NCBI GenBank assembly: GCA_049999805.1 | Contig: JBNGIO010006317.1 | Coordinates: 711,662 to 774,143 of the forward strand | Direction of reading: 5' to 3' | Source of the DNA: Folioceros fuciformis | Lineage: Eukaryota | DNA: 62,482 bases | In this document: one piece after another, positions 1 through 61,700 of the stretch | Layout: every line of letters starts with the position of its first letter | How positions within the stretch are numbered: position 1 is the first letter of the stretch | Position numbers and translations under genes: made by a program | The notes under the pieces: generated by a model | What the model was told of the DNA's origin: nothing | Databases searched by the model: none | Seen by the model: the letters and a program-made list of their open reading frames with translations, nothing else

Positions 1-483
1 TGGCTACTACCCTAGACTCAATCTGACAAGCTTGCTCTTCAAGCCTTCCACAGCTATGCCTCAAGGCTAGACTTCTCACTGTCTACCTATGTCTCTCTGT
101 GTATTAGTGTATCACAATATATCCTTAAGACCCTAACACTGGCCTATTTATACTCCACAGCTAAGCCACTACTAAAGCTGGGAATGATACACACCACTCA
201 TCTCAGAGTACTAGTGGTCATTACAACTCCATCCTTCTCATGAGGTTTTGACTAGAACACACATCTTGTTTCCCAAGGCAGCAAGAAGCATACTTGCTTC
301 TTCATCAAGACAACTCTAGATTTAGCTTTCACCTTTCTACTTTTGACTTTCACCTTATTTCACTTGTGTCATTACTTCAGAAGTGAATATGGTAATCTTG
401 GGAGATTAAGTCAATATGGTATTCTTATAAGATTAAGCAGCTGATGGGGTTCCATATATAATTATATAATTCTCGCTACATCA
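1..483 (-). mobile_element. Possible LTR (partial) of an LTR retrotransposon
   Basis: Non-coding. The minus strand begins TGATGTAGCG at 483 (LTR-like TG start) and has TATAAATAG at ~144-152. No second LTR or pol ORF is visible. Confidence 0.25.
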
Positions 484-723
484 AAATCTAGTAACAAGCA
501 ACTAAAAAAACTTCTATATATGTTGTACTATGGCGTTCATTTTAATTATATACTATCTACTGATGCAGCAAACTGATTTAACATATTCTACGCGACTTGC
601 CCTCATCTACTCACGTTGCTTACTTATATCTTTACATTCATTTAGATTTATGAGAAAAATCGGATAAATATATAAAAAAAAAACTCATCATAGAGAGCCA
701 AATTAGCAAGGTATTGAACCACA

Positions 724-1248
724 ATGGACCTTTCAATTAGCCAGTGGGAAGTAATATTGAATGGTGCCAAATACAATACAAAGACTACAATGAACAAATA
801 TGATGGCAACGAGACACTTAGTTGTAGTATTTGTCTTGAAGAGATTGAAAAGGGAAAAAATAATATAATCAAGATCATTGAATGTGGTCATATTTTCCAC
901 TTTAAGAAATGTCTTGTACCATGGATTAAGAGGAATCGTACGTGTCCGAACTGTAGGGGTGATATATTTTATTCTATTAGTTCTCAAACAATACAACAGG
1001 ATCAAGTATCGTTTCATGAAGGAGTTACATCAATAACCCTCCCCAACGTAACACTATGTCTTCGAGGATTTGGACTCATGCGTGCACCTTTTACTGAATC
1101 TGAGATATCACAAATATCACGAATATGGCTTTTGGATGGCTTCTTGGGTATCCAGTTGGCACATGAAGCACTTACCTTTCAAATTGTTGAAGATGACCCA
1201 CAGCGACGTGAATATACGTACCTAGCGAGTATCTTCTTTGGCTCATAG
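724..1248 (+). CDS. RING-H2 zinc finger protein (putative E3 ligase), intronless, AT-rich
   Basis: CSIC...ECGHIFHFKKC..W...CPNC matches the C3H2C3 RING-H2 pattern; 174 aa ORF. Confidence 0.8.
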   Translation: MDLSISQWEVILNGAKYNTKTTMNKYDGNETLSCSICLEEIEKGKNNIIKIIECGHIFHFKKCLVPWIKRNRTCPNCRGDIFYSISSQTIQQDQVSFHEGVTSITLPNVTLCLRGFGLMRAPFTESEISQISRIWLLDGFLGIQLAHEALTFQIVEDDPQRREYTYLASIFFGS

Positions 1249-1712
1249 ACTCACCATGGGCAATGTGATGTGTGTTTCAACCAATGAGTGATGCCTCACT
1301 TGTGAACCTATGTGTATAGATATATGTGAGTCTCAAAATTATGGCTCCTAAGTAAGATGTAGGTGCACGGTTTTTTTCTCATCAACACCTACATGATGTA
1401 ATTTGTTGCTCAATGTGATAACATAGCCCACCATTCATCCAAGAATGCGGTATTGAAATTTGTGCAAGAAGTTGATGGGAGAGGTGAAAGCATGAAGAAG
1501 GGTGTGGATCTTGTTGGACACGGATGACTGCTGCCAATTTTCACGTTGATTTGGTCTAGCTATGTGGAGGTGAAGAACTTCCTTTGTCTAGTTAAGCCTT
1601 TATGCATAGATCATGTGCTAGGTCTACCTTTGCAAGGCTTTTGTTGACTATAGATCCGCAAGTGTATTCTATGAGTCTAACGTTGACAGTTAGAACCAAA
1701 AAATCCTAACAA

Positions 1713-1974
1713 GATGCAGCATCCTATCTTGATTAAATCGATCACCAACTTCTCAAACAATAGTTTTGTTTTGCAAAGCACCCCTTTTTTCTTTCTCATC
1801 AAGCACCCTATGTCACTTGATCCACATCAAAGGAAAGTTCATGATGCAGCATCCTGTCTTGATTAAATCGATCACGAACTTCTCAAACAATAATTTTGTT
1901 TGGCAAAGCACCCCTTTTTTCTGTCTCATCAAACACCCTATGTCACTTGATCCACATCAAAGGAAAGTTCATGA
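1713..1974. repeat. Tandem duplication, ~130 bp x2
   Basis: GATGCAGCATCCT...GGAAAGTTCAT starts at 1713 and 1843; the copies are near-identical. Confidence 0.9.
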
Positions 1975-2490: not shown

Positions 2491-3353
2491 AAAGGATCTC
2501 CTTGAGCATAAGTGACAACGACTCTACAACATCTCTCCCAAGAGCTAGCCTCCAATTCCTACTCTTTCAGTGGGGCTGATGTATATTGTCAATTGTTGAG
2601 GAACTGACTTGGTTCACAAAGCTGCCAAGTTTTGCTTGTTTTGACGATCTGTTGCCAAATCTTTCAAGCGTAGGCAACAGAAGTCCGTGCTTGTCGGTGT
2701 GTAGGTGTGCCAGTGTGTGGGGTATCAGCAAGATGTAAGGGCTGTAATAGTACTTGAGTATTGAGTGAAAAACTAAGACAAGAAAGATTTCTCGACCCAG
2801 AATCGTGGTGGACTCGGGCAAGGGTTTTGTGGTGCACAATGTCTCATTCCAGGCACGCATGGGCTTGTTTGAACCACACCGACGATGCCTACAAGCACAA
2901 AAAATGCCACGATTTTTAGGCACGAGAGGGAATGAGATCTTGAGCTAAAACCAAAGTGCCATGTTTATCCCCAGCAATTCTACACCGAGTGATCAATGTG
3001 ATGATGAGCTGTGTAGCTTCAAATCCAGTTCACTCTTAACCGCTGAAGTCGCAAAGTCGTAAACGACGGTTCATGAATCACAAGTGGATCTCGCAATGGC
3101 AATCGTGGCTACCGCATGCTGTGACAAGAATGCTTACGACGTGACCTGCATGTCCTGCACGGAAGTAACAGTGGCTCTCGGCAGCACCTGTGCTTTAGCT
3201 GGGAGTCCGCCATGAGGCTCCCAGTTAAAGCACTGCTTTACCCGGATAGCGGTGGAGCTGGCGTACTCTACGAAACCTGCACCCGACTTGTTCCAGCTGC
3301 CTGCCTTCACAAGGAAGAAAGGTGTGGCCAGCTAGCAAGCGAGGAGAGCGGAT

Positions 3354-4979
3354 ATGCCTGAGTATAACGAGCACGCCGAGGGAATGAAGTCCTCAAGCCA
3401 TACTGAGGGAATGAAGCTTCCAAGCTTTATGTCTCCAGAGGAGGAGACATTCTTCAGAGAGGCCAAGGTTCCAGTTCGGCTGGCCGCAGCTGCGTATTCT
3501 GCATCGATATCCGATGACAAGCACACTCTGCCTTTCATCGCTGGTAGCAGTACGGTGATGCCAGTGAGCCAGCTGCTGAAGCCGTATCTCCATCTTCAAG
3601 GCGACTCGATGCAAGATATAATGGTGCATGTGGTTGTCATGCCCGTGAAACTGTCAAAAGACGCTAAAGGCGAAGGCCGAACCCGTCCGAAGAAAGTGGT
3701 CTGGGATCTGGCCTTGGTTTACCGGGGCACGCAACCTTACAATGTCTCCAACTGGATCACCGACTTCACCTTCGACCAGGAGCAGGTGGACGACTACATC
3801 TTGAGGCACACGGACCCTAAGCAGCAGAAGATGGTTCTCGCGCACCGAGGCTTCCTCAGAGCATTCAGGAGCATCCATCCGCGGCCGGCTACTGATGGCC
3901 ATTCGGACCTCAGGGTGAGCAGCGTGGTGGATAGCTTGAAAGAGGAGGTGGAGGCGACTTTCGCCAGGCGTCATAGCTGCAAGCACGGGCCTTCCAGCCA
4001 CCAGGATCCCGATCGCCAAAAGGACAGAGCCCGAATGCTGAGGCGTCAGGACGTTCTGCGCGAGGGACTGAGGGGATCTCCTAGGCGAATTTTGTGCATC
4101 GGGCACAGTCTTGGGGGAGCCTTGGCCACTCTGGGAGCTGCCTGGTGCTCCACTACCTTGGTCGAGGAGGAAGCTTTCAGGCATTCTACGGTTCACTGCA
4201 TCACGATCGGGTCTCCCAGGGTTGGAAACGGCGTGTTTGCAGAGGCTTGGGAGGACTTGCTCCTAGGAGGCAAGACCAGGAAAGGGTTCCATGACGGGCA
4301 CGGCACTGGCACTGGCACTGAGAGCTTGACATACCGGATTGTGAACGCCATGGATCCCGTCCCAAGCTCCCCACCTTCTAAGATCATGTTCTACGACTAC
4401 AAGCATGTTGGAAAGGAGGTTTACTTGGAGAGGCAGGTGGAGGACTGGAGTGTGAACGTCATTCCACACGTCGACACCGACCGGCCGTGGCAGAATACTG
4501 GTTCTGTGACTGATCACATGCAGTGGCACTACACTGCTGCGATGGTTGCAGCAGAAACGTTGGCATCCCAGCGCAAGAAAGCTGACAGGGGGGGACCCCG
4601 CACCTGGTATTCTCGGTTCAAGAAGCAGTTGGATTTGTGGGCCGTATGGAAGATGTTTGTGCACGTTTTGCAACTGGATCTTTCGTTGCGAGAACATTTG
4701 TGGTTGCTGTGTTTGTCGTGGGGGCTTGTCATCGTACTGATTTCTTTGACATCGTTCTGTTGGCTCGCCTTATTCTGCATCATGACCTTCCTCCTTCCAG
4801 CGGTTTCGTTTTGTGTTGTGTTGGACTTCGCTGTGCGTCCATTACTGTTACCATTGGATCTGCTTTTTCCATCCAAGGAACCACGTCCTCCGAACTTCAA
4901 GTTGAGCAACTTAAGCCTTGCCGTCCTGTCACCGGTTGTAATGGTGATCACCTACGTGGCTGCTTGGGTTGGTATGTAA
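3354..4979 (+). CDS. Class 3 lipase (alpha/beta hydrolase) with hydrophobic C-terminal membrane segments
   Basis: VYRGT..W.TD, AHRGF, nucleophile elbow GHSLGG, TIGSPRVGN, RIVN.MDPVP, YKHVG, DH; 541 aa intronless ORF. Confidence 0.9.
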   Translation: MPEYNEHAEGMKSSSHTEGMKLPSFMSPEEETFFREAKVPVRLAAAAYSASISDDKHTLPFIAGSSTVMPVSQLLKPYLHLQGDSMQDIMVHVVVMPVKLSKDAKGEGRTRPKKVVWDLALVYRGTQPYNVSNWITDFTFDQEQVDDYILRHTDPKQQKMVLAHRGFLRAFRSIHPRPATDGHSDLRVSSVVDSLKEEVEATFARRHSCKHGPSSHQDPDRQKDRARMLRRQDVLREGLRGSPRRILCIGHSLGGALATLGAAWCSTTLVEEEAFRHSTVHCITIGSPRVGNGVFAEAWEDLLLGGKTRKGFHDGHGTGTGTESLTYRIVNAMDPVPSSPPSKIMFYDYKHVGKEVYLERQVEDWSVNVIPHVDTDRPWQNTGSVTDHMQWHYTAAMVAAETLASQRKKADRGGPRTWYSRFKKQLDLWAVWKMFVHVLQLDLSLREHLWLLCLSWGLVIVLISLTSFCWLALFCIMTFLLPAVSFCVVLDFAVRPLLLPLDLLFPSKEPRPPNFKLSNLSLAVLSPVVMVITYVAAWVGM

Positions 4980-37153: not shown

Positions 37154-38137
37154 GTCTCGGCCCATTGGTGCCTGTAAATTTTTACACTAAGCATCCTTCA
37201 CGCTCACAGGGAACTCGGGAGCATGTCGTGTATAAAACGGGAGTGGTTTCTTAGGAATCTCACCTGCCCCGCAGGGTGCGGCACAAAAGCAAACAGAAAG
37301 CCCGGCCGCTCGCGTTAGCTGACCCACCACTCCTGGGTCTTACAGGCATCAGGAAAGGGCAGGCCAGAGCAGAGCAGGGATGAAGCAAGTTACATTACAG
37401 ACAAGGATTACGAACCTTTCTTTGTACATATGTAGTTTGTGCAAGGATTAAGGTGGAGCGTGAAGTGTCGTCCTCTGCCAGAGCTTCTTTTGTCATGAGG
37501 CTGCAGCTACCACGCCTCGCCCGGACTGTACAGCGACAGAGAGGCACATGTGACGGGAAGAAGAGGGTAGACGATAGTACAGGCCAGGCTTTAAGGGCGG
37601 GGTAAAAAACTATCAGGACCGTCGCACAGGGATTGAATGCGGTGAATCCCGCCCCACCATCTCCCGCCAGGGCACCATCATTTCCGCCAGCTCCCTGCCG
37701 CCACTCGACACCCGCATTCATGCGGCATGTCCCGCTTTCATGCGCGAATGCGATGCGCAGAAGCCCAGGTCCCTGCTTGGCAGCGCCCTGCGCGCCACAG
37801 GTCCGCTGCCCTGCCCAGGACTTGCAGAGCAGCGGCAGCTTCTGACGTTCCAGGTGCGGTCTGACGGGAAAAGAGACGGGGCCTATGGAGAGCCAGCCGG
37901 CTATGGCGCTCTCGTGCAGGGCTCCGCATGACCTCGTCATCACATGCCCCTCGTGAGCGGAGGACGCGCTGCAGAAAGCTGCCCTGCTGTTGTTGTCTTG
38001 GGTGGCATTTCTACTGTCTGATGTCTCGAATGGCATTGTGTTGACTGATTGACTCACATGGGCGGGAAGGATTGATGGGCCCTTGGGGGCTATAGGATTC
38101 CTTCTGTGTGTGTTGTGGGGTTGAGAACATCTCTGCC

Positions 38138-41100
38138 ATGGCGGGCGCGGGAGGGAAGTACGCTGTCGGGGGCTTTGTGCTGCTGTTGCTGTGGCTGTGC
38201 GTGGGTGGAGGGGGGGGGGGAGTCGGGGACGAGGTGGCGGCCTTGATGCAGATCAAGGAGGCTCTGGTGGACCGCATGAATTATCTGGAGGGATGGCAAG
38301 GGAACGCCACAAATGCGTGTGGGTGGAGGGGAGTCTCCTGCAATGCCGCGATGAGGGTGCAGGAGCTGAGCCTGGCGGGACTAAATTTGACGGGCTCGCT
38401 CTCGCCGGCTGTGGGTTTCTTGTCAGCTCTCACCAATTTGAGTGTTCAGCAGAACAACTTCACGGGGACGCTACCTGTGGCGATTGCCACTCTCACGCGC
38501 CTCCGTTTCTTGAACGTGTCCAACAACAATTTCAGCTACTCTTTTCCAGCGGGATTTGGCGCGCTCACCAAGTTGGAGGTGCTGGACACGTACAACAACA
38601 ATTTCTCCGGGCCGCTGCCGGAGGAGCTTGCCGTGCTGCCTGCTCTGGAGCATTTGCATTTGGGGGGAAGCTATTTCGAGGGGACTATTCCTCCGAGCTA
38701 TGGGAACATCAGCAGTCTGAAGTATTTGGCACTGTCCGGGAATTCTCTCACGGGACGCATTCCTCCTGAGCTGGGTAACCTCACTAGGTTGGAGGGGTTG
38801 TATCTCGGCTACTTCAATGTGTATGATGATGGCATCCCGCCGGAGCTTGGGAGGCTTAAGAATTTGGTGAGGCTGGATCTGGGGGGATGCCAGCTCACTG
38901 GCGGGATTCCTGCTGAGCTGGGTAACCTGGAGAGCTTGGACACGCTCTTCTTGCAATTCAACGAGCTCACCGGCAGTATTCCACTGGGGCTTGGAAACCT
39001 CTCCAATCTCAAGTCTCTGGATACCTCTCTGAATCGGATGAGCGGCGGCATTCCGCCCGATTTCTACAAGCTGGAGAAGTTGGAGCTGCTTTCTTTGTTC
39101 GGGAATCAGTTTATGAGCGGTCCGATTCCCGACTTCATTGCTGCCCTCCCTAATCTGCAGGTTTTGCATCTTTGGGGAAACCAGTTCACTGGCAGCATTC
39201 CTGCCAACCTTGGCAACAGTACGAAGCTGATAATGGTCGATCTGTCCAACAATTCTCTGTCTGGTGTCATCCCACCTTACCTGTGTGCGGGGCCCCTTCA
39301 GCGGCTCATTTTGCAGATCAACCAGCTTTCAGGGCCCATCCCTGACAGCATTGGCAGGTGTCAGAGCCTGGAATACTTGCGGCTCGGGCACAATCAGCTG
39401 AATGGCACCATCCCGGCGGGTCTCCTCGGCCTCACTAATTTGTCCTTCCTGGAGCTTCTTGACAATCGTCTGGAGGGGTCTATTCCTCAGGGTTTCGTAA
39501 ATGTCCCACGCCTCTCGAGGCTGGATTTGTCGGACAACTTGTTGGACGGAGATCTTCCTGGCAGCATTGGGAGTCTGCAAAGCGTGCAGTACTTGGCCTT
39601 GACTGGGAATCGATTTTCAGGGAGCATTCCTCCCGACATTGGACAGCTCAGCTTCCTCAACACCATCGACCTGAGTCGGAATTTCTTTACAGGTAGCATT
39701 CCCCCGGAAATCGGGCTGTGCAGTCAGCTCTCGGATCTGGATTTTAGTTCTAACCAGCTGACAGCGGAGATCCCTAAGGAGCTCAGCCATCTTTCGGTGC
39801 TTTCTTATCTCAATCTGTCAAGGAATTCGCTGGTGGGGCCTATCCCGGAAGAGCTGCAGGATCTGCAGACCCTGAACATCGTGGATTTTTCCTACAACAA
39901 TCTGTCCGGGCCGATTCCTGTGAGTGGCACGTTTCAGTTTTTCAACTACAGCTCGTATATGGGGAATCCGGGGCTGTGCGGCCCGCGGAGTATCATCCCT
40001 ACTGGGACTTCCGCATGTGATGCTCCGCAGAGCGCGGTGTATCCCACGAGATCTGCTCCTCGCCGTGGGGGTAAAGCAGCCCCTATTGCCTGGATTGTGG
40101 GAGGCCTCTTCGCAGCTGCGCTCATAGTGTTGCTTGTTGGTGTGTGCTGCTTTTTCAACAAGTATCGATGGTACATTTCCAACATCTTGGCCAAGGACAA
40201 GTCCATCCGTCCCTGGAAGCTTACAGCTTTCCAAAGGCTTAACTTCTCCGCCAACCATGTGCTGGGGTGCCTCAGTGAAGACAACATTATTGGCAGGGGT
40301 GGTGCGGGGACCGTCTACAAAGGCGAGATGCCAGATGGGGAGAACATCGCAGTTAAGAGGCTGCCTGGCAAGGCGACCGGGAAAGGCTTTTCCCACGACC
40401 ATGGCTTCTCAGCCGAGATTCAGACTCTGGGCAAAATCAGGCACCGTAACATTGTGCGGCTGCTGGGATGCTGCTCAAACCATGAGACTAACTTGCTCGT
40501 GTACGAGTACATGCCCTACGGCAGTCTAGGTGAGATTCTGCACGGCAAAAATCATGTCCTATTGGTATGGAACACTCGCTACGAAATAGCAGTGCAGGCA
40601 GCAAAGGGCTTGGCTTACTTACACCATGACTGCCAGCCTGCTATTTTACACCGAGACGTTAAGTCCAACAACATACTTCTGGACTCCAACCTGGAAGCCC
40701 ACGTTGCTGACTTCGGGCTGGCTAAGCTTCTACAAAACAGTGGGACATCACAATCTATGTCCTCAATCTCTGGTTCTTACGGATACATTGCTCCAGGTAA
40801 CACTCCAACTCCTTCGAGTTTCCTGTTCTTGGTGATGCAATCGCAAGCCTTACAGTCTCTGCTTGCCTTATTGACCCTGAAACGCTCACTTGGTGGTGTG
40901 GTCGTTGCAGAGTATGCCTACACGTTGAAGGTGAACGAAAAGAGCGACATATACAGCTTCGGGGTAGTCCTTATGGAGCTCATCACAGGCAAGAGGCCAA
41001 TCGAGCAGGAGTTCGGAGAGGGAGTGGACATTGTGCAGTGGGTTCGTGGGAAGATCCAACACAAGGACATGGGTGCCGAGGTGCTAGACTCCAGGCTTGG

Positions 41101-41308
41101 AAGTAAAAATCTGCCCCTGCAAGAGATCATGCTGGTTCTGAGAGTGGCACTGCTCTGCACCAGCGACCTACCTGTCGACCGACCCACTATGCGCGAGGTC
41201 GTCCAAATGCTCCAAGACGTGAAACCCAGCAGCAACGACACCAAAAATGTGTCGAGCAAGCCGAGCACACCCGACAGAAAGAAAGGAACCCCCCTTAGCA
41301 TAGTCTGA
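38138..41308 (+). CDS. CLV1: CLAVATA1/BAM-like LRR receptor kinase (LRR-XI); exons 38138-40796 and 40911-41308
   Basis: Signal peptide, ~21 LRRs, TM; WKLTAFQRLNF, HDHGFSAEIQTLGKIRHRNIVRLLG, HRDVKSNN, DFG; GYIAP|EY with the conserved single intron. Confidence 0.93.
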   Translation: MAGAGGKYAVGGFVLLLLWLCVGGGGGGVGDEVAALMQIKEALVDRMNYLEGWQGNATNACGWRGVSCNAAMRVQELSLAGLNLTGSLSPAVGFLSALTNLSVQQNNFTGTLPVAIATLTRLRFLNVSNNNFSYSFPAGFGALTKLEVLDTYNNNFSGPLPEELAVLPALEHLHLGGSYFEGTIPPSYGNISSLKYLALSGNSLTGRIPPELGNLTRLEGLYLGYFNVYDDGIPPELGRLKNLVRLDLGGCQLTGGIPAELGNLESLDTLFLQFNELTGSIPLGLGNLSNLKSLDTSLNRMSGGIPPDFYKLEKLELLSLFGNQFMSGPIPDFIAALPNLQVLHLWGNQFTGSIPANLGNSTKLIMVDLSNNSLSGVIPPYLCAGPLQRLILQINQLSGPIPDSIGRCQSLEYLRLGHNQLNGTIPAGLLGLTNLSFLELLDNRLEGSIPQGFVNVPRLSRLDLSDNLLDGDLPGSIGSLQSVQYLALTGNRFSGSIPPDIGQLSFLNTIDLSRNFFTGSIPPEIGLCSQLSDLDFSSNQLTAEIPKELSHLSVLSYLNLSRNSLVGPIPEELQDLQTLNIVDFSYNNLSGPIPVSGTFQFFNYSSYMGNPGLCGPRSIIPTGTSACDAPQSAVYPTRSAPRRGGKAAPIAWIVGGLFAAALIVLLVGVCCFFNKYRWYISNILAKDKSIRPWKLTAFQRLNFSANHVLGCLSEDNIIGRGGAGTVYKGEMPDGENIAVKRLPGKATGKGFSHDHGFSAEIQTLGKIRHRNIVRLLGCCSNHETNLLVYEYMPYGSLGEILHGKNHVLLVWNTRYEIAVQAAKGLAYLHHDCQPAILHRDVKSNNILLDSNLEAHVADFGLAKLLQNSGTSQSMSSISGSYGYIAPGNTPTPSSFLFLVMQSQALQSLLALLTLKRSLGGVVVAEYAYTLKVNEKSDIYSFGVVLMELITGKRPIEQEFGEGVDIVQWVRGKIQHKDMGAEVLDSRLGSKNLPLQEIMLVLRVALLCTSDLPVDRPTMREVVQMLQDVKPSSNDTKNVSSKPSTPDRKKGTPLSIV

Positions 41309-53098: not shown

Positions 53099-55078
53099 AT
53101 GGATCCGTTGGACATAGACATCGCTCTCACGGCCAGTCTCTGGGCCAGACCTACATTTAGATGCCAGTCCTTCCTTACGGTGTTACTGGACTTCGATAGA
53201 GAAAGCTTGGTGGCCGGCCACGCTGAATCTGCGGCGGAATTCAAAAGAATGGCGGATGATCCTGAATGTGCCATGAAGCCGTTCACCCACATTGTGCTGG
53301 ATCCTCTAAGGCCATTCGCCTACCTTCCAAGAATTGGAGGTTGGCAACCCTGCGGACGTGATGCCGACTGCCGACATATGCTTGGCTCAGCAGGCTAAAG
53401 CGCATTTTCTTCAGCGTGGAGTGGAGCATATGAGGTTGGGCTTGCATTGCCTCAACGAACTTTTTCTTACTCGAGAAAACGCTCACTTGGCTGACAACCA
53501 GTGGACCAGAGCGCTTTACTGCTACAAACTCGAGTTGCATTCTCCTGGAGGATATGAAGGACACCAAAGCCGGCGCGGATTTGTCATCTACCTCGGTGGA
53601 CCGGGACGAGGCCACTACCTCCACAGCAGGTTCCAAGAGCTCGAATCCGCTGCACCAAGAAGTCCAATACATGCTTGAGGTTATCCATTTCCATCGATGT
53701 GGTACGTATCTGCGTTTGGGGAGCTACAAAAATGCATTGGCGGATGCCGACATGTGCTGACAGCTAAACCCTCCGATTCGGATCGGCTGGCCGAGATCCG
53801 GCATCAGAAATTCAGGGCAAGAGTGGCTATGAAGGAGAGTGGTCTAGGCATCTACGAGTTTGACGACGAGGACTTCTGCAGGTACTCTGGAACTGAGCAC
53901 GCGCTAGGCTGTGCTCCTTTCGTTGGAGCTATTGAGCTTCGCGATAGTATCGATAGTGGCGAGTGTGGGATGTTTGCATCCCAGGATGTGAAGCCGGGGG
54001 AGCTACTCCTTGTGAGCAATCCCCTTGCACGAGGAAAAGCTCACCAGTCTTGGCCCCAGATACTGTTTTACAGTGGAAGCTGTCTTTTGTCAAGTAAGGA
54101 ACCTGAGCATGGCCAACATAAACTCTGGAACTCCCGATTTCAGAATTTGTTTGTCGAGATCGTAGCCAAGGCACAACACTCGCCGCAGTACGCGGCGCAG
54201 CTCAGGAGCATGCTCCGAGGCACAACGTGGAAGCCTTACTTAGATATTTTCACTAACGATTGGGATGACGACTCGTTTGGAGATGTAAGATCACTGGAGG
54301 ACCACCAATTCCACTTGACGACAGTGGACATCAATGATATCCGACGCGTTGTGGAAACCTTGGGCAAATTTGACAGGGCGCAGTACGGACTGCCTTGTTT
54401 CTTCAAGCACTCTTGTGCTCCTAATTGTGTCTGCTACACGGAGACTACACGGAGCGGCGGAACTATGTTCATTGCCTCCACTACCATGTTTCCCGCTGGA
54501 GAGAAACTTTCGATCAAATTGGTGTCCAACTTCCACAGTAACCTCATCCGCAGTGAACAGTTTAGGCGACAACTCGAAAAGGATTTCTGCAGGTGTCAGC
54601 GGTGCAGGTTTGAAGAACATGTAGTCATGAATATCCCGGATTTGCGAGCTCTGCTCTGCAGTCGTGGTTATCCGGCATTGCTAGGAATAGAAGCTGTGGA
54701 TGCTATTCAGATGGTAGAGGACATGCTAGCCACACCTTCTGAAGCTAGGAAGGGCTCTCTGCAGACGATAATACTGTCCAATGGCAGTGGCGAGTATGTG
54801 CTAAGGAAATGCTTTCAAGTCAAAGCTGGCTAGCGAAGATACTGCACAGCGATATCGACTCTCCTCACCTCACTGATGAGAAGCATAAAGATTGGATCCG
54901 TTGCTCCTCCGCCCTTGCTTTTGTTGTACCGTTCTTGTCGGCACCAACTATTGCAGCGGAATGGATGGATGAGGTAGGGCGAATTTTAACAGCAGTTGAA
55001 CCTGGCACATCAAACGACTTAACCATTCTCGCCTTCTGTAGGGATAAAATGCATCTTCGGACATTGAGGAAATTGTAG
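53099..55078 (+). pseudogene. TPR + SET-domain (SMYD-like) gene broken by several frameshifts
   Basis: TPR-like HRCGTYLRLGSYKNALADA; SET GMFASQDVKPGELLLVSNPL, FFKHSCAPNC, AGEKLSI, FCRCQRC. The homology is spread over overlapping ORFs in different frames. Confidence 0.7.
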
Positions 55079-57353: not shown

Positions 57354-57596
57354 ATGTGTTTTCCAATCATGGAGCTCTGGGGAGGAGGCCACTACCATCC
57401 GGGGCAGCCCCGCCCCGCGCTGTGGACTTGGGGACCCGTGCTCAGGCCTGCGCCTCCTCATCTTCATGGCCCTCCTTTGCACCATCCCCATCCTCACCAC
57501 CACCCCCCCCACCACTTCGGAGGTCCTGGTCATCTCGCAGGCCCGGGGCACTTCGGCGGGCCACATCACGGCGGACATCACCACCACCATCACTGA
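57354..57596 (+). CDS. Small His/Pro/Gly-rich protein (80 aa)
   Basis: ATG-started ORF ending HHGGHHHHHH*, with GPGH repeats; GC-rich island. No recognised family. Confidence 0.55.
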   Translation: MCFPIMELWGGGHYHPGQPRPALWTWGPVLRPAPPHLHGPPLHHPHPHHHPPHHFGGPGHLAGPGHFGGPHHGGHHHHHH

Positions 57597-57899
57597 GCGA
57601 GGTGAGATCTCGTTGCCACACCACCCATCATCTCAGTCACCGCTTTCTCTTCGTGCCTGACCTCACTTAACTTTGACTGTCTGCTGGACAATCTTCAGTG
57701 ACTTCAGGGCGGCAGGGTGATGCACAAGGTGACATCCTTGTCGGAACAAAGCGCAAGGCAAATGAAGCCCCCTCGACTGTCGCGATTGCTTACTGTACAC
57801 TCCCAAGGCTTGTCACCATGAATGCTTGTTTTGATCATGACAGGTAGGGTTGTGACACGATTTTTAGAGATGACTGTAGGCTGATACGTGGAAGATAAT

Positions 57900-60800
57900 C
57901 TACACCTGAGCACTGAGCTCCTTCAGCTTCGCATAAATTTCTGAACCTTGAAAACGGTTGTTGTCACCTAACATGAATGAGTGTACCTGCCCATCGTACT
58001 CCATCCAACTCTGACCGGTTTTCGTACACGCGTCAGCAGAGTCTCGGGAGTCCTCCATCTCCATCGCCCTGTCCCATAGTTGCGCATGGGCATAAATGTT
58101 TGACATGAGCACGTACGCTACGCCCTTTGATGGCCCCAACTTGATTGCCTGCTGAAAGGCTTGCTCGCCCAGTTCGACGTGAATATGCTTCCTGCAGGCA
58201 CTAAGCAAAGCAACCCACACTGCCCAACTGGGTCGCATGGGCATGATCTGAATCACCTTTTTCGCCTTGCTGAGAAGCCCGGCGCGGCCAAGAAGATCTA
58301 CCAGGCTGGCGAAATGGGAAGGCGTTGCACTGATGCCATAGTCCCTGCCCATAGATCTAAAGAGCTCCAAGCCTTCCTCAACGTTGCCTGCGTGACTGCA
58401 TGCCGAAAGGACAGACACGAAGGTGACTGCATCCGGTCTCATGCCTGTCTGCTGCATTTTTCTGAAGCTCTGTAAACTCTGTTCACTCTCTCCTAGTCTG
58501 GCATATCCTGCGATTATGGCAGTCCATGATACCACATCATGCTGGGACACCAGGTCGAATACGCGAATAGCATGCTCCATGCTTCCACACTTACCGTAGG
58601 CATGAATCAGACTCCTGGCAACAGTCACGCTGTGTTCCAAACCCCGTTGAATGATATCCTCATGGATTTGAAGGCACGTATTCAGGGCACCTACGTTGCT
58701 GCAGGCCTTCAGGATACTGAGAAAGGTAGCTCCATTTTGGGTCACGCCGTTTTCTTCCATTTGCAAGTAAAGCTGCACCGCCTTCTCACCCTGATCTTGC
58801 TCGGCGTACCCAGAAATCATCGCATTCCAGGAGACCACATTTCGCTGACCTAAATTGTCAAACACATCCCGGGCATCCTCAACACTCCCACACGTTGCAT
58901 ACATGTGGATAAGAGTATTGCCCACAAATGTATCTGATGCATAACCTGCCCTTATAATCTCTGCATGGATGTCCCTCCCCAGCTGGAGGGATTGTACTTT
59001 CACACTTCGCTCGTTGACGATCCTCTCTTCCTCCATGTCTGCAACAAGGGTGCATGCCTTCAGCACACTGACAAATGTGCGGTCATCAGGCCCAACACCA
59101 GCCTCTTGCATCTGAGCATAGAAGTGCAAGGCTCTCTCCCCTTGCTCCTGCTGTGCATAAGCTGTAATGATTGCATTCCATGACACTACATCTTGCTGGG
59201 ACAACTTGTCAAACACATGCCTCGCATCCAAAATGCTCCCACATTTTGCATACATATCAACGAGTGTATTCCCTACAAAAACGTTCGACTCATATCCTCT
59301 TCTCCTCACCCCAGCATGGATTGCCCTCCCTCTTTCCAATGACGCCGCTCTTACACACTGTCCATTTACGACAGTCACCTCCTCCATAGCTGCCACGATG
59401 CCACATGCCTTGAGCGCACTAACAAAGGTCCGGTCATCTGGCTTCACATTGGCTCGCTCCATTTCTGCAAAAAGTTCCAAAGCCTTCTCACCCTGTTCTT
59501 GCTGTACATACCCTGTGATCATAGTGTTCCAACACACCACATTGCGCTGCGACAGAGAATCAAACACTTGTCGTGCGTCCAAGATATTTCCACATTTTGC
59601 GTACATGTGAATGAGACTGCTACCCACAAACTCATTAGAATCCAAGCCCCTTCGAGAGACGTCCTCATGAACTGCCTTGCCAACTTTCAAAGCCTTCCCT
59701 TTATCAAGCTGGCCTTCAGGCGCTTCTCTCTCAATGACTGCAAGCATACCACATGCTTTGAGCACACTGACAACCGTTCTTTCATTCGGTGTCACGCCTG
59801 CCTCCTGCATTTCCAAATAGAGCTGCAAAGCCTTTTCTACCTGTCCATGCTGTACATATCCAGCAATCATTGTCGTCCACGACACAACGTCCGGGTTGGA
59901 CATTCCATCAAACACCTGTTGTGCGTACGTCATGCTCCCACATTTCGCGTACATGGCTATAATACTGGCACACACGAAACTCTCAGAATCCCATTTACAA
60001 CTGACGACATCGAAATGAATTCGCCTGCCCCTTTCAATATCCCCCAAGAGAGCACACACCTTCAACATAGCCACAAGTGTGTACTTGCTTGGCTGAATAC
60101 CCCCGTCTTGCATTTGCGTGTAAAGCCTTAGAGCCTCTCGGGGTTGTTTGTGCTCAACATACCCAGATATCACAGCTGTCCAAGAGAACACGGTACGTTT
60201 AGATAGCGTTGAAAATACCTGCACCGCATCTGCAAGACTTCCACACTTGACAAACATATGCACCAGAAGTTCCCCCAGATAGCTGTCCTGCTCAATCCCG
60301 TGCTGTATGATTTGAGCATGCACTTGCTTGCCCTCAGTCAACGCCTTCTTCTTGACACACACCTGCAACAGATGTCCGTAAGTGTGGACTGAGGGCGCAA
60401 CGCCCATGGTGTGCAAGGCATTGAGTGCTTCTTGTAGGTGCCCCTCGCGACATAATCTCTGCAGCTCAAGGTCATCTTCGGAGCACGGTACAGGAGGCCC
60501 GCTAAATCTACCACCGGTCTCTTGGTTTGATGGCAAAGAAGCCAGCAGTGCTTCTACCCACGGCGGCTTCAACCAACTATTGATCCACAAAACCTCGTTC
60601 TTTGACTTGTGCCTAAAGTCCGGACGAGTAGGAGTTCGCTGCGGCAGGCCAGCATAGAAGTCAGCACACGCACTCGCAACCACAAGAAAAGTTCACATCC
60701 ACTAGGCCCCACCCTTCCACAGTCCGAACACTACCTTATCCAGCCTGTTGTCCCACCACTGTGAGGGATCAGCGAAGAACTCCTGCCAGAGATGGTGAAG

Positions 60801-61391
60801 CCGCTCTCTCCGTTCCTGCTCATTCTCTACGCCTACCGAATCACACCAACAAGTCAGACGACAAAAAAATCCACACCCATCCCACACCAATTCCTCAACC
60901 GAACCCATGAACTTAAACATACACCTACAAAGAAAGACGCCTGTTCCTGACCCTGCTCTGAAGACGGCGTGTTCCGTGGCCTGGCCACACGGTCTCTCCA
61001 CAATACATCCCTGGTGAGCCTTTCACCAAAATCGGGCATCTCAGGATCTGCCTGCAAGCACCAGCCAAACTGTAAACACCGAAACATTCAAACCAAACAA
61101 AAATCACACAACAACACCTCATACCTCAGTGGACCTGGAATCCCGCCATCCTGCAGGATCCACAAAAGAAGGCTGCCACTTCCCTCCCCCACGGTTTCCA
61201 GCCGCAGACACGCCCGACCCTTTCGCATCGGCAACGAGCATCAGCCCCGCTGTACTCCAACACGCCCGTGCAGAGCAAACAACAGGCGGGACCGTACCGC
61301 ATTGCCCTGCACCTTGACTCCATCCTCCCACACCGGAATGCTCGTAGCCCTTGCTGGGCGCATTGCCATAGCTGCGACTACACGACAACAT
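57900..61391 (-). CDS. PLS-class PPR protein (E/E+, no DYW) with N-terminal OSB-type PDF motifs; exons ~61391-61125, 61051-~60925, 60832-60735, 60638-57900
   Basis: Repeated P-L-S triplets (LVDMYAKCGS..DAR.VFD...DVVSWNA), E domain, PG-box-like KTGQSWME..VHSF..GD. The upstream exons splice in frame; the start is uncertain. Confidence 0.9.
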
Positions 61392-61700
61392 GCTCGACCG
61401 CGGTGGCACGGTGCTCCACCTTCGCCAGCATCCAACCGGACAATGTCGTTTACCGTCTTCCAGCCTCGGCGCTGGCGCTGGCTCTGGGTCTGGCGCTCTT
61501 ATCAGCACCTATCGCTTCTCAGATATTCTGTCATTCCTTCTCAGTCTCGTGAACCCCTCTCTCTCTTCCTCTCAATCTCTCTACCATAAGCATTGTTTCC
61601 TTACTACTTACTACCTACACATCTATTCCAAATCTGAAGCACGTACATTCATCAAACTTATCAATTCTCATCATCAATCTTACACCGTACTCTAAATAAC

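Follow-up and report, generated by a model that had tools for sequence, protein, structure and literature searches.

The window analysed here is a stretch of 62,482 nucleotides from the hornwort Folioceros fuciformis (GCA_049999805.1, contig JBNGIO010006317.1, positions 711,662 to 774,143). Its minus strand carries, between window positions 57900 and 61391, a gene in which the PDF motif of the organellar single-stranded DNA-binding (OSB) proteins is fused to a pentatricopeptide repeat (PPR) protein of the RNA-editing type. As an observation this fusion is confirmed. Both motifs, a degenerate PDF-1 and an intact PDF-2, lie on the minus strand at 60540-61200, where a sequence-only reading of the DNA had placed them. 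A 930-codon frame (57903-60692, minus strand) comprises the second half of PDF-2 and the entire PPR array, so that the intact motif runs in frame into the array as that reading had claimed.

Structure and splicing of the gene

The spliced product has four exons and encodes 1,067 amino acids with one stop, and its three introns are all GT-AG on the minus strand. The coding part of exon 1 (61125..61391) starts with an ATG at 61391 and encodes a leader of about 70 residues and then the first half of PDF-1 (61125-61181). Contigs reach upstream to 61495, and within this contig-covered leader an out-of-frame upstream open reading frame of 17 codons (61378-61431, minus strand) overlaps the main ATG. 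Intron 1 (61052..61124, 73 nt, phase 0) interrupts PDF-1, whose second half (about 60989-61051) is followed by a linker in exon 2 (60952..61051), and intron 2 (60833..60951, 119 nt, phase 1) separates the two motifs. The first half of PDF-2 (about 60735-60797) lies in exon 3 (60735..60832), intron 3 (60639..60734, 96 nt, phase 0) splits it, and exon 4 opens with its second half (60537..60638), which has its exon and frame in common with the PPR array. Each motif had been described as split by a phase-0 intron at a common position, and this is borne out by introns 1 and 3. The middle intron goes beyond that description, as do the size of the PDF family (at least about 230 loci), the optional presence of the motif and the PPR-less PDF-DYW genes discussed below.

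The splicing evidence comes from contigs of public sequencing runs that are presumed to be RNA (none is recorded as RNA) and are taken as transcript-like because intron-free contigs are what transcripts yield; the support thus lies in their intron-free bridging of the exons. A contig of run X1 (record 1) agrees with the window with no difference in blocks 61495-61125, 61051-60952, 60832-60735 and 60638-57697. A contig from another organism (X2, record 6) has identical joints from exon 1 through exon 4, with 4 differences in the 100 nt of exon 2 and 146 in 2502 nt of exon 4. All four runs compared bridge introns 1 and 2, and X1 and X2 bridge intron 3 as well, the joints being taken from the best 15 of 196 entries in one table and the intron-3 joint from another. 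The joining of the PDF exons to the PPR exon, the point on which the first reading most depended, is therefore seen in spliced contigs from two organisms.

That a short PDF gene merely adjoins a PPR gene and was joined to it by annotation is largely refuted, and we give it almost no weight. The X1 contig is fused at its far end with a convergent plus-strand transcript (recognized by a GT-AG intron on that strand) that overlaps the 3′ end of the PPR transcript. Such contigs can therefore join genes, and the runs are only presumed to be RNA, but the PDF-PPR joints are untouched by this merger. Moreover, half of PDF-2 lies with the PPR array in a single exon and reading frame, the three minus-strand introns are spliced out in two organisms, and dozens of paralogues carry PDF and PPR in a single unbroken frame.

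The encoded protein

A hidden Markov model (HMM) was built from the 149 PDF motifs in 56 proteins that carry an OB-fold signature. It gives PDF-2 (residues 135-189) 67.8 bits and PDF-1 (residues 71-110) 20.5 bits, while the highest score among 1000 shuffles of the first 130 residues is 7.5 bits. Both motifs are thus of the OSB type, as first proposed; the test is only partly independent because a profile made from this genome had been used to retrieve the 56 proteins in the first place. The leader is rich in Ser, Gly, Ala and Arg and, with this transit-like make-up, is likely a transit peptide. Removal of the PDF along with it is unlikely, since residues 135-189 form the intact copy and paralogues show purifying selection on the motif (below).

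The PPR array (58190..60470, boundaries approximate) has about seven P-L-S triplets and matches PF13041 (E 5.7e-111) and PF01535 (E 1e-92). Its triplet spacing is 101/116/117/117/101 amino acids, in which the 116-117 spacings correspond to three long-L (LL) motifs. The E1-E2 motifs follow at approximately 58030..58190 (PF20431, E 1.5e-7, 32 bits against a cut-off of 27.3). The E+ tail (57900..58030), aligned to full DYW domains, covers a degenerate PG box plus the first part of the gating domain and ends there, without the HxE/CxxC deaminase core; the protein stops after E+ and has neither a KP box nor a deaminase ending in GRP or DRH. The designation as a PLS-E specificity factor therefore stands as to the editing-factor anatomy, which the protein sequence supports, and is refined to an E1-E2-E+ end with three of the L motifs long.

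Like the PLS E+ factors of the CLB19, SLO2 and CRR4 type, the window protein has a P-L-S array, E1-E2 and an E+ tail that lacks the catalytic core; it differs from them in its N-terminal PDF motifs and its LL motifs. With the OSB proteins (AtOSB1-4) it shares a PDF of about 55 residues in one or more tandem copies and the intron site of this genome's own OSB gene. In OSB proteins, however, the PDF follows an OB-fold, whereas here it is N-terminal, lacks an OB-fold and precedes about 880 residues of PPR-E+. No Pfam family, and hence no OB-fold, was detected in the upstream exon frames of the gene, and matches to PF00436 (OB-fold/SSB) are confined to contigs C3075 and C6415. The DYW:KP proteins (putative U-to-C editors ending in GRP or DRH, which are hornwort variants; PMC9478123, cited like the other PMC records from excerpts) make up the class of 26 of 34 intronless PDF-PPR paralogues. 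The window gene, by contrast, lacks both the KP box and the deaminase, and it clusters with fern PDF-PPR proteins in an LL/E+ group. RRM-PPR fusions likewise put an additional nucleic-acid-binding domain on a PPR protein, but only a few are reported per seed-free lineage (PMC13386178), against hundreds of PDF fusions in this genome alone. By sequence, the window protein belongs with the PLS-class editing factors, as a variant of them, and is distinct from the OSB proteins.

The PDF itself is predicted by AlphaFold to form a compact 59-residue domain (pLDDT 92), and the PDF regions of five paralogues have no Pfam match. Foldseek finds no clear match to it in the PDB (best E 5.0), and the best hit of a wide VIA-align search has Z 2.6 and a root-mean-square deviation of 2.7 over 42 aligned residues; neither a new nor a different fold follows from these null results. 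The best hit in a search of PDB sequences is CP29 at E 0.03, which we take as chance. The nearest ESM Atlas clusters are those of phage gp49 (PF25690, 36-55% of members) at 0.77-0.83, below the 0.9 mark, and PHROGs give weak, scattered matches (best E 0.004, 5 of 55 members). The possibility of a phage origin is a lead for further work. For the PDF motif of L024 (639-815) the nearest clusters are small phage proteins (PF25690 gp49), with a score of 0.83.

PDF genes in this genome and in other plants

A search of the 87-Mb genome with the PDF half-exon gave 334 candidates; all 150 that were scored matched, mostly in frames of 750-1850 codons. A DNA pattern coding WWDNR found 236 matches against 8 for a control pattern. 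At least about 230 loci thus bear a PDF, and most of those sampled are intronless DYW:KP genes. Complete intronless PDF-PPR frames were present at 34 of 40 loci retrieved from the upper end of the candidate list, 26 ending in DYW:KP and 8 in E or E+; this count excludes incomplete, broken and intron-split loci.

Three samples were drawn without selection for the PDF. Pattern matches for KP ends number 188 (GRP) and 55 (DRH), and 18 of the 188 GRP-end loci were taken by stepping through the first 100 listed. All 13 intact GRP-type frames among them carry a PDF, which amounts to a single inherited state and not 13 tests, since the GRP genes are one clade. The remaining five comprise one with a PDF upstream of an assembly gap, one broken with a remnant, one broken without, and two that run off the contig. 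Of 40 loci sampled from 150 listed with a DYW domain, 33 are KP-type (none GRP), and 7 of these have an intact PDF and 3 an in-frame remnant (15-38 bits). The same sample includes five canonical PPR-DYW genes, all lacking a PDF (one is cut at its 5′ end), a DQW-ending gene without a PDF and a PPR-less gene with one. Among 20 of 150 listed E+-anchored loci (1071 candidates), none has an intact PDF and 2 have scored remnants, about 1.6 kb upstream having been scanned, so that distant exons may escape. Across these samples, nearly all GRP genes carry the PDF, other KP genes carry it irregularly, and E+ genes do so rarely. It is optional, being missing from most E+ and many KP proteins, and these absences rule it out as a requirement of all KP or all E+ proteins.

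Several further paralogues deserve mention. Three GRP-type genes (L054, L125 and L131) have two intact intronless PDF motifs in tandem, and protein P0001 has three. L109, L110, L122, L126 and L127 are broken or frameshifted KP-type paralogues, consistent with fast birth and death in the family. In the intronless PDF-PPR-E+ genes L022, L026, L035, L045, L048, L051 and L060 the PDF clusters with those of GRP genes (support 97); those C-termini that were placed fall outside the KP group, so that swaps between paralogue classes have likely occurred.

Where the motif is split, its intron is in phase 0 and lies five codons upstream of the Pro-Asp-Phe triplet in all 17 split motifs of 15 genes. These include the true OSB gene L116, which has an OB-fold, and both PDF introns of the window gene match its intron. 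Ten of the split genes besides the window gene have a PPR frame just downstream, to which the join is presumed, making the window gene one of 11 intron-keeping PDF-PPR genes found. Among the intron-split genes examined it alone has PDF and PPR within one exon; L038 has its plan, two intact PDFs and then a PPR frame. A quick tree built from C-terminal regions (83 rows) joins the window gene to L104 (support 95) inside the LL/E+ group that contains the fern proteins, and PDF-bearing members occur in the canonical and KP groups as well. A tree of the PDF alone (59 columns), with 41 of its 59 inner branches unresolved, gives no basis for counting fusion events, and the data fit either a single ancient fusion followed by many losses or a number of fusions and swaps. 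The simplest history, as we infer it from the common intron site, is that PLS genes captured PDF exons with their intron from an OSB-type gene early in land plants. Intron loss and retroposition would then have spread the motif, chiefly among GRP-type DYW:KP genes; the expansion of hornwort PPR genes is reported to be driven by retroposition (PMC13386178).

Similar fusions had been anticipated in other seed-free plants, and they are widespread there. When 1.84 billion representatives were searched with a profile, 990 matched, and the best 150 of these were examined. A PDF followed by PPR sequence occurs in about a dozen of 158 proteins examined, the named ones coming from the ferns Adiantum, Ceratopteris and Pteridium, the lycophyte Diphasiastrum and the moss Sphagnum, whose protein has a canonical DYW end. 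None of the named proteins among these best 150 matches is a PDF-PPR protein of a seed plant.

PDF and PPR are each known, and their combination is new as far as the literature was searched. Full-text searches found no description of the fusion, with about one chance in four that supplements and some key papers mention the domain. The KP-protein passages in the excerpts of PMC9478123, PMC13386178, PMC11897456, PMC11845758 and PMC12548569 do not mention an N-terminal PDF. The term OSB is absent from the available main text of PMC13386178 and from the excerpts of PMC7027989, PMC11897456, PMC8075897, PMC11845758, PMC12548569 and PMC11094755, and occurs once each in those of PMC10226603 and PMC11135702, in the reference list only. 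The fusion has probably gone unreported because the PDF has no Pfam model.

PPR-less DYW genes as candidate partners

A pattern for canonical DYW ends gave 18 matches, of which 8 were judged real. Nine others, of the DFW type, have one common sequence resembling a KP-domain motif read in antisense; a further match has no stop codon. Three of the approximately eight real ends belong to genes with no PPR motifs in the frames seen. L068 (locus positions 68-850, minus strand; contig G000:C2033) and L143 (locus positions 2985-4043, plus strand; C2365) each encode an intron-split PDF, a linker and a DYW core with HSE and CxxC; L142 (locus positions 3-1739, plus strand; C1291) encodes a truncated DYW protein, and its 5′ end lies off the contig. 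The three are mutually best matches, at 72-73% versus at most 65% to others. In the window gene and three paralogues the E+ tail stops about where the DYW similarity of L068, L143 and L142 starts, and an E+ tail is reported to supply the PG box and gating-domain start in trans to the truncated DYW proteins DYW2 and DYW1 (PMC11897456). The genome thus holds truncated DYW genes with ends complementary to its E+ proteins, as in the systems served by those donors, and from this fit L068, L143 and L142 would be candidate trans deaminase donors. DYW1 is a truncated DYW domain only and DYW2 has a few degenerate PPRs (PMC11897456), whereas the candidates here have a PDF and, in the frames seen, lack PPR motifs. 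E+ proteins are enriched in hornworts (PMC13386178), which, like the GRP and DRH ends, points to a hornwort as the source of this genome. A small number of trans DYW donors may sustain C-to-U editing in hornworts, and assigning them to their partners is difficult (PMC12548569); the three PPR-less genes, two of them with a PDF, are concrete candidates for such donors. For the PDF-linker part of a PPR-less PDF-DYW protein, a weak word-based search found no homologue at E <= 0.001 among 478 candidates. Separately, L042 (locus positions 1-1333, plus strand; contig G000:C5989) is a PDF gene with a long low-complexity repeat tail like the linker of L142; no DYW was seen in it, and its PDF groups with those of L068 and L143 (support 99).

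The presence of a PDF on both halves of a split editor raises the idea that it is a docking module, which pairs PDF-PPR-E+ factors with PDF-DYW donors or packs on the PPR array in the manner of the MORF helpers. MORFs are reported to be absent from seed-free plants, and AtOSB2 is a tetramer (PMC6963530). However, most E+ proteins, which depend on donors as well, have no PDF, and most of the PDF copies sampled (26 of 34 intronless frames) are on KP proteins with a catalytic domain of their own. A PDF homodimer prediction scored 0.00 in two runs without an alignment and with controls not folded, and is neutral. We regard docking as unlikely.

Possible role of the PDF in editing

In paralogues the PDF is under purifying selection by its substitution pattern: the ratio of nonsynonymous to synonymous substitution rates (dN/dS), in a set picked for clean PDF motifs, is 0.20 in 20 GRP-type and 0.27 in 5 DRH-type genes at dS 0.6-0.7, compared with 0.08 and 0.06 for their DYW cores. 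Fourteen PDF columns are invariant across 55 copies, and the OSB core residues are kept. These values bear on the idea that the PDF is a passenger, which arrived with upstream exons that provided a promoter and transit peptide, was retroposed, and is loosely kept for folding or spacing while adding nothing to editing. The retroposition-driven expansion, the frequent loss or decay of the motif in KP and E+ genes, the decayed PDF-1 in the window and the single inherited state behind the 13 GRP genes all agree with it. It is doubtful nonetheless, given the constraint just described, the retention of the PDF in ferns, a lycophyte, a moss and this genome, and on PPR-less DYW genes too, and the lack between leader and PDF of the OB-fold found in OSB proteins.

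The reading we prefer, at a probability of roughly 0.55, is that the window protein acts in an organelle as a specificity factor for C-to-U editing, relies in trans on a truncated DYW protein, and has in its PDF an optional, sequence-independent anchor to single strands. The protein would be imported into an organelle as a PLS-E+ PPR protein without its own deaminase, and its array would read RNA upstream of the edited C, as PPR arrays do (PMC11897456). Its E+ tail would then complement a truncated DYW partner, presumably from among the three PPR-less DYW genes. The PDF would lengthen dwell time or increase local concentration at the sites of transcript synthesis, its ligand being, at about even odds, nascent RNA or exposed nucleoid single-stranded DNA (ssDNA), and would be helpful but not essential. 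Such binding is suggested by the conservation of the motif and by the report that the PDF of AtOSB1 is sufficient for ssDNA binding (PMC6963530). MORF helpers are reported from seed plants only (PMC13386178), which leaves room for a built-in helper. The earlier interpretation of the fusion is partly supported: its motif identity, splicing, editing-factor anatomy and occurrence in other seed-free plants hold, a tether to nucleoid ssDNA or R-loops and a motif turned to RNA binding being the hypothetical roles that it proposed.

A number of points weigh against this reading. The reported ligand of the PDF is ssDNA and not RNA; the Pfam E+ model is not among the matches for the window tail, and its PG box is degenerate. 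The motif is patchy on non-GRP KP genes and was absent in intact form from the canonical and E+ genes sampled; PDF-1 of the window gene has decayed, and the PDF is under weaker constraint than the DYW core (0.20 vs 0.08), in genes chosen for clean motifs. One contig of run X9 has a 1-nt deletion at window 61020 in exon 2 (depth 15/28), which may be an allele, a paralogue or an error. Synthetic GRP-type editors composed of P1-L1-S1 triplets and C-terminal domains alone edit 22-26% (PMC9478123), that is, without a PDF.

The weakness of those editors, set against a PDF on every intact GRP gene sampled, also bears on the activity of natural KP proteins, which is stated as open (PMC11845758). A broader reading, tentative at best, would have PDF-tagged editing throughout seed-free plants. 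Native GRP-type U-to-C editors would need the PDF for full activity, the PPR-less PDF-DYW proteins would be the missing trans deaminases of hornwort E+ factors, and the PDF would gather both on nucleoid single strands, linking the organelle DNA maintenance machinery to RNA editing and replacing MORF. The presence of the PDF on many of these suspected enzymes gives a new way to probe their mechanism with bacterial editing assays that already exist, and adding or removing it might make engineered U-to-C editors better.

Conversely, the PPR array might steer the PDF to organelle DNA sites such as R-loops or repeats, for a sequence-specific, OSB-like role in DNA maintenance. The known PDF ligand is ssDNA, OSB1 limits recombination at repeats (PMC6963530), and a synthetic PPR protein binds ssDNA via the same code (PMC11094755). 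The retained editing-type E1-E2-E+ and DYW ends, and the dN/dS of 0.06-0.08 of the DYW core in PDF-bearing paralogues, make this role highly improbable.

Elsewhere in the window, the convergent plus-strand gene (57360-57900) has a Gly/His/Pro-rich frame and an intron at about 57602-57698. A plus-strand frame at 53679-54833 encodes a SET domain (PF00856, E 1.5e-7). Finally, a 1070-codon plus-strand frame at 38096-41305, with a start resembling a signal peptide, presumably encodes a leucine-rich-repeat receptor kinase, judged by eye.

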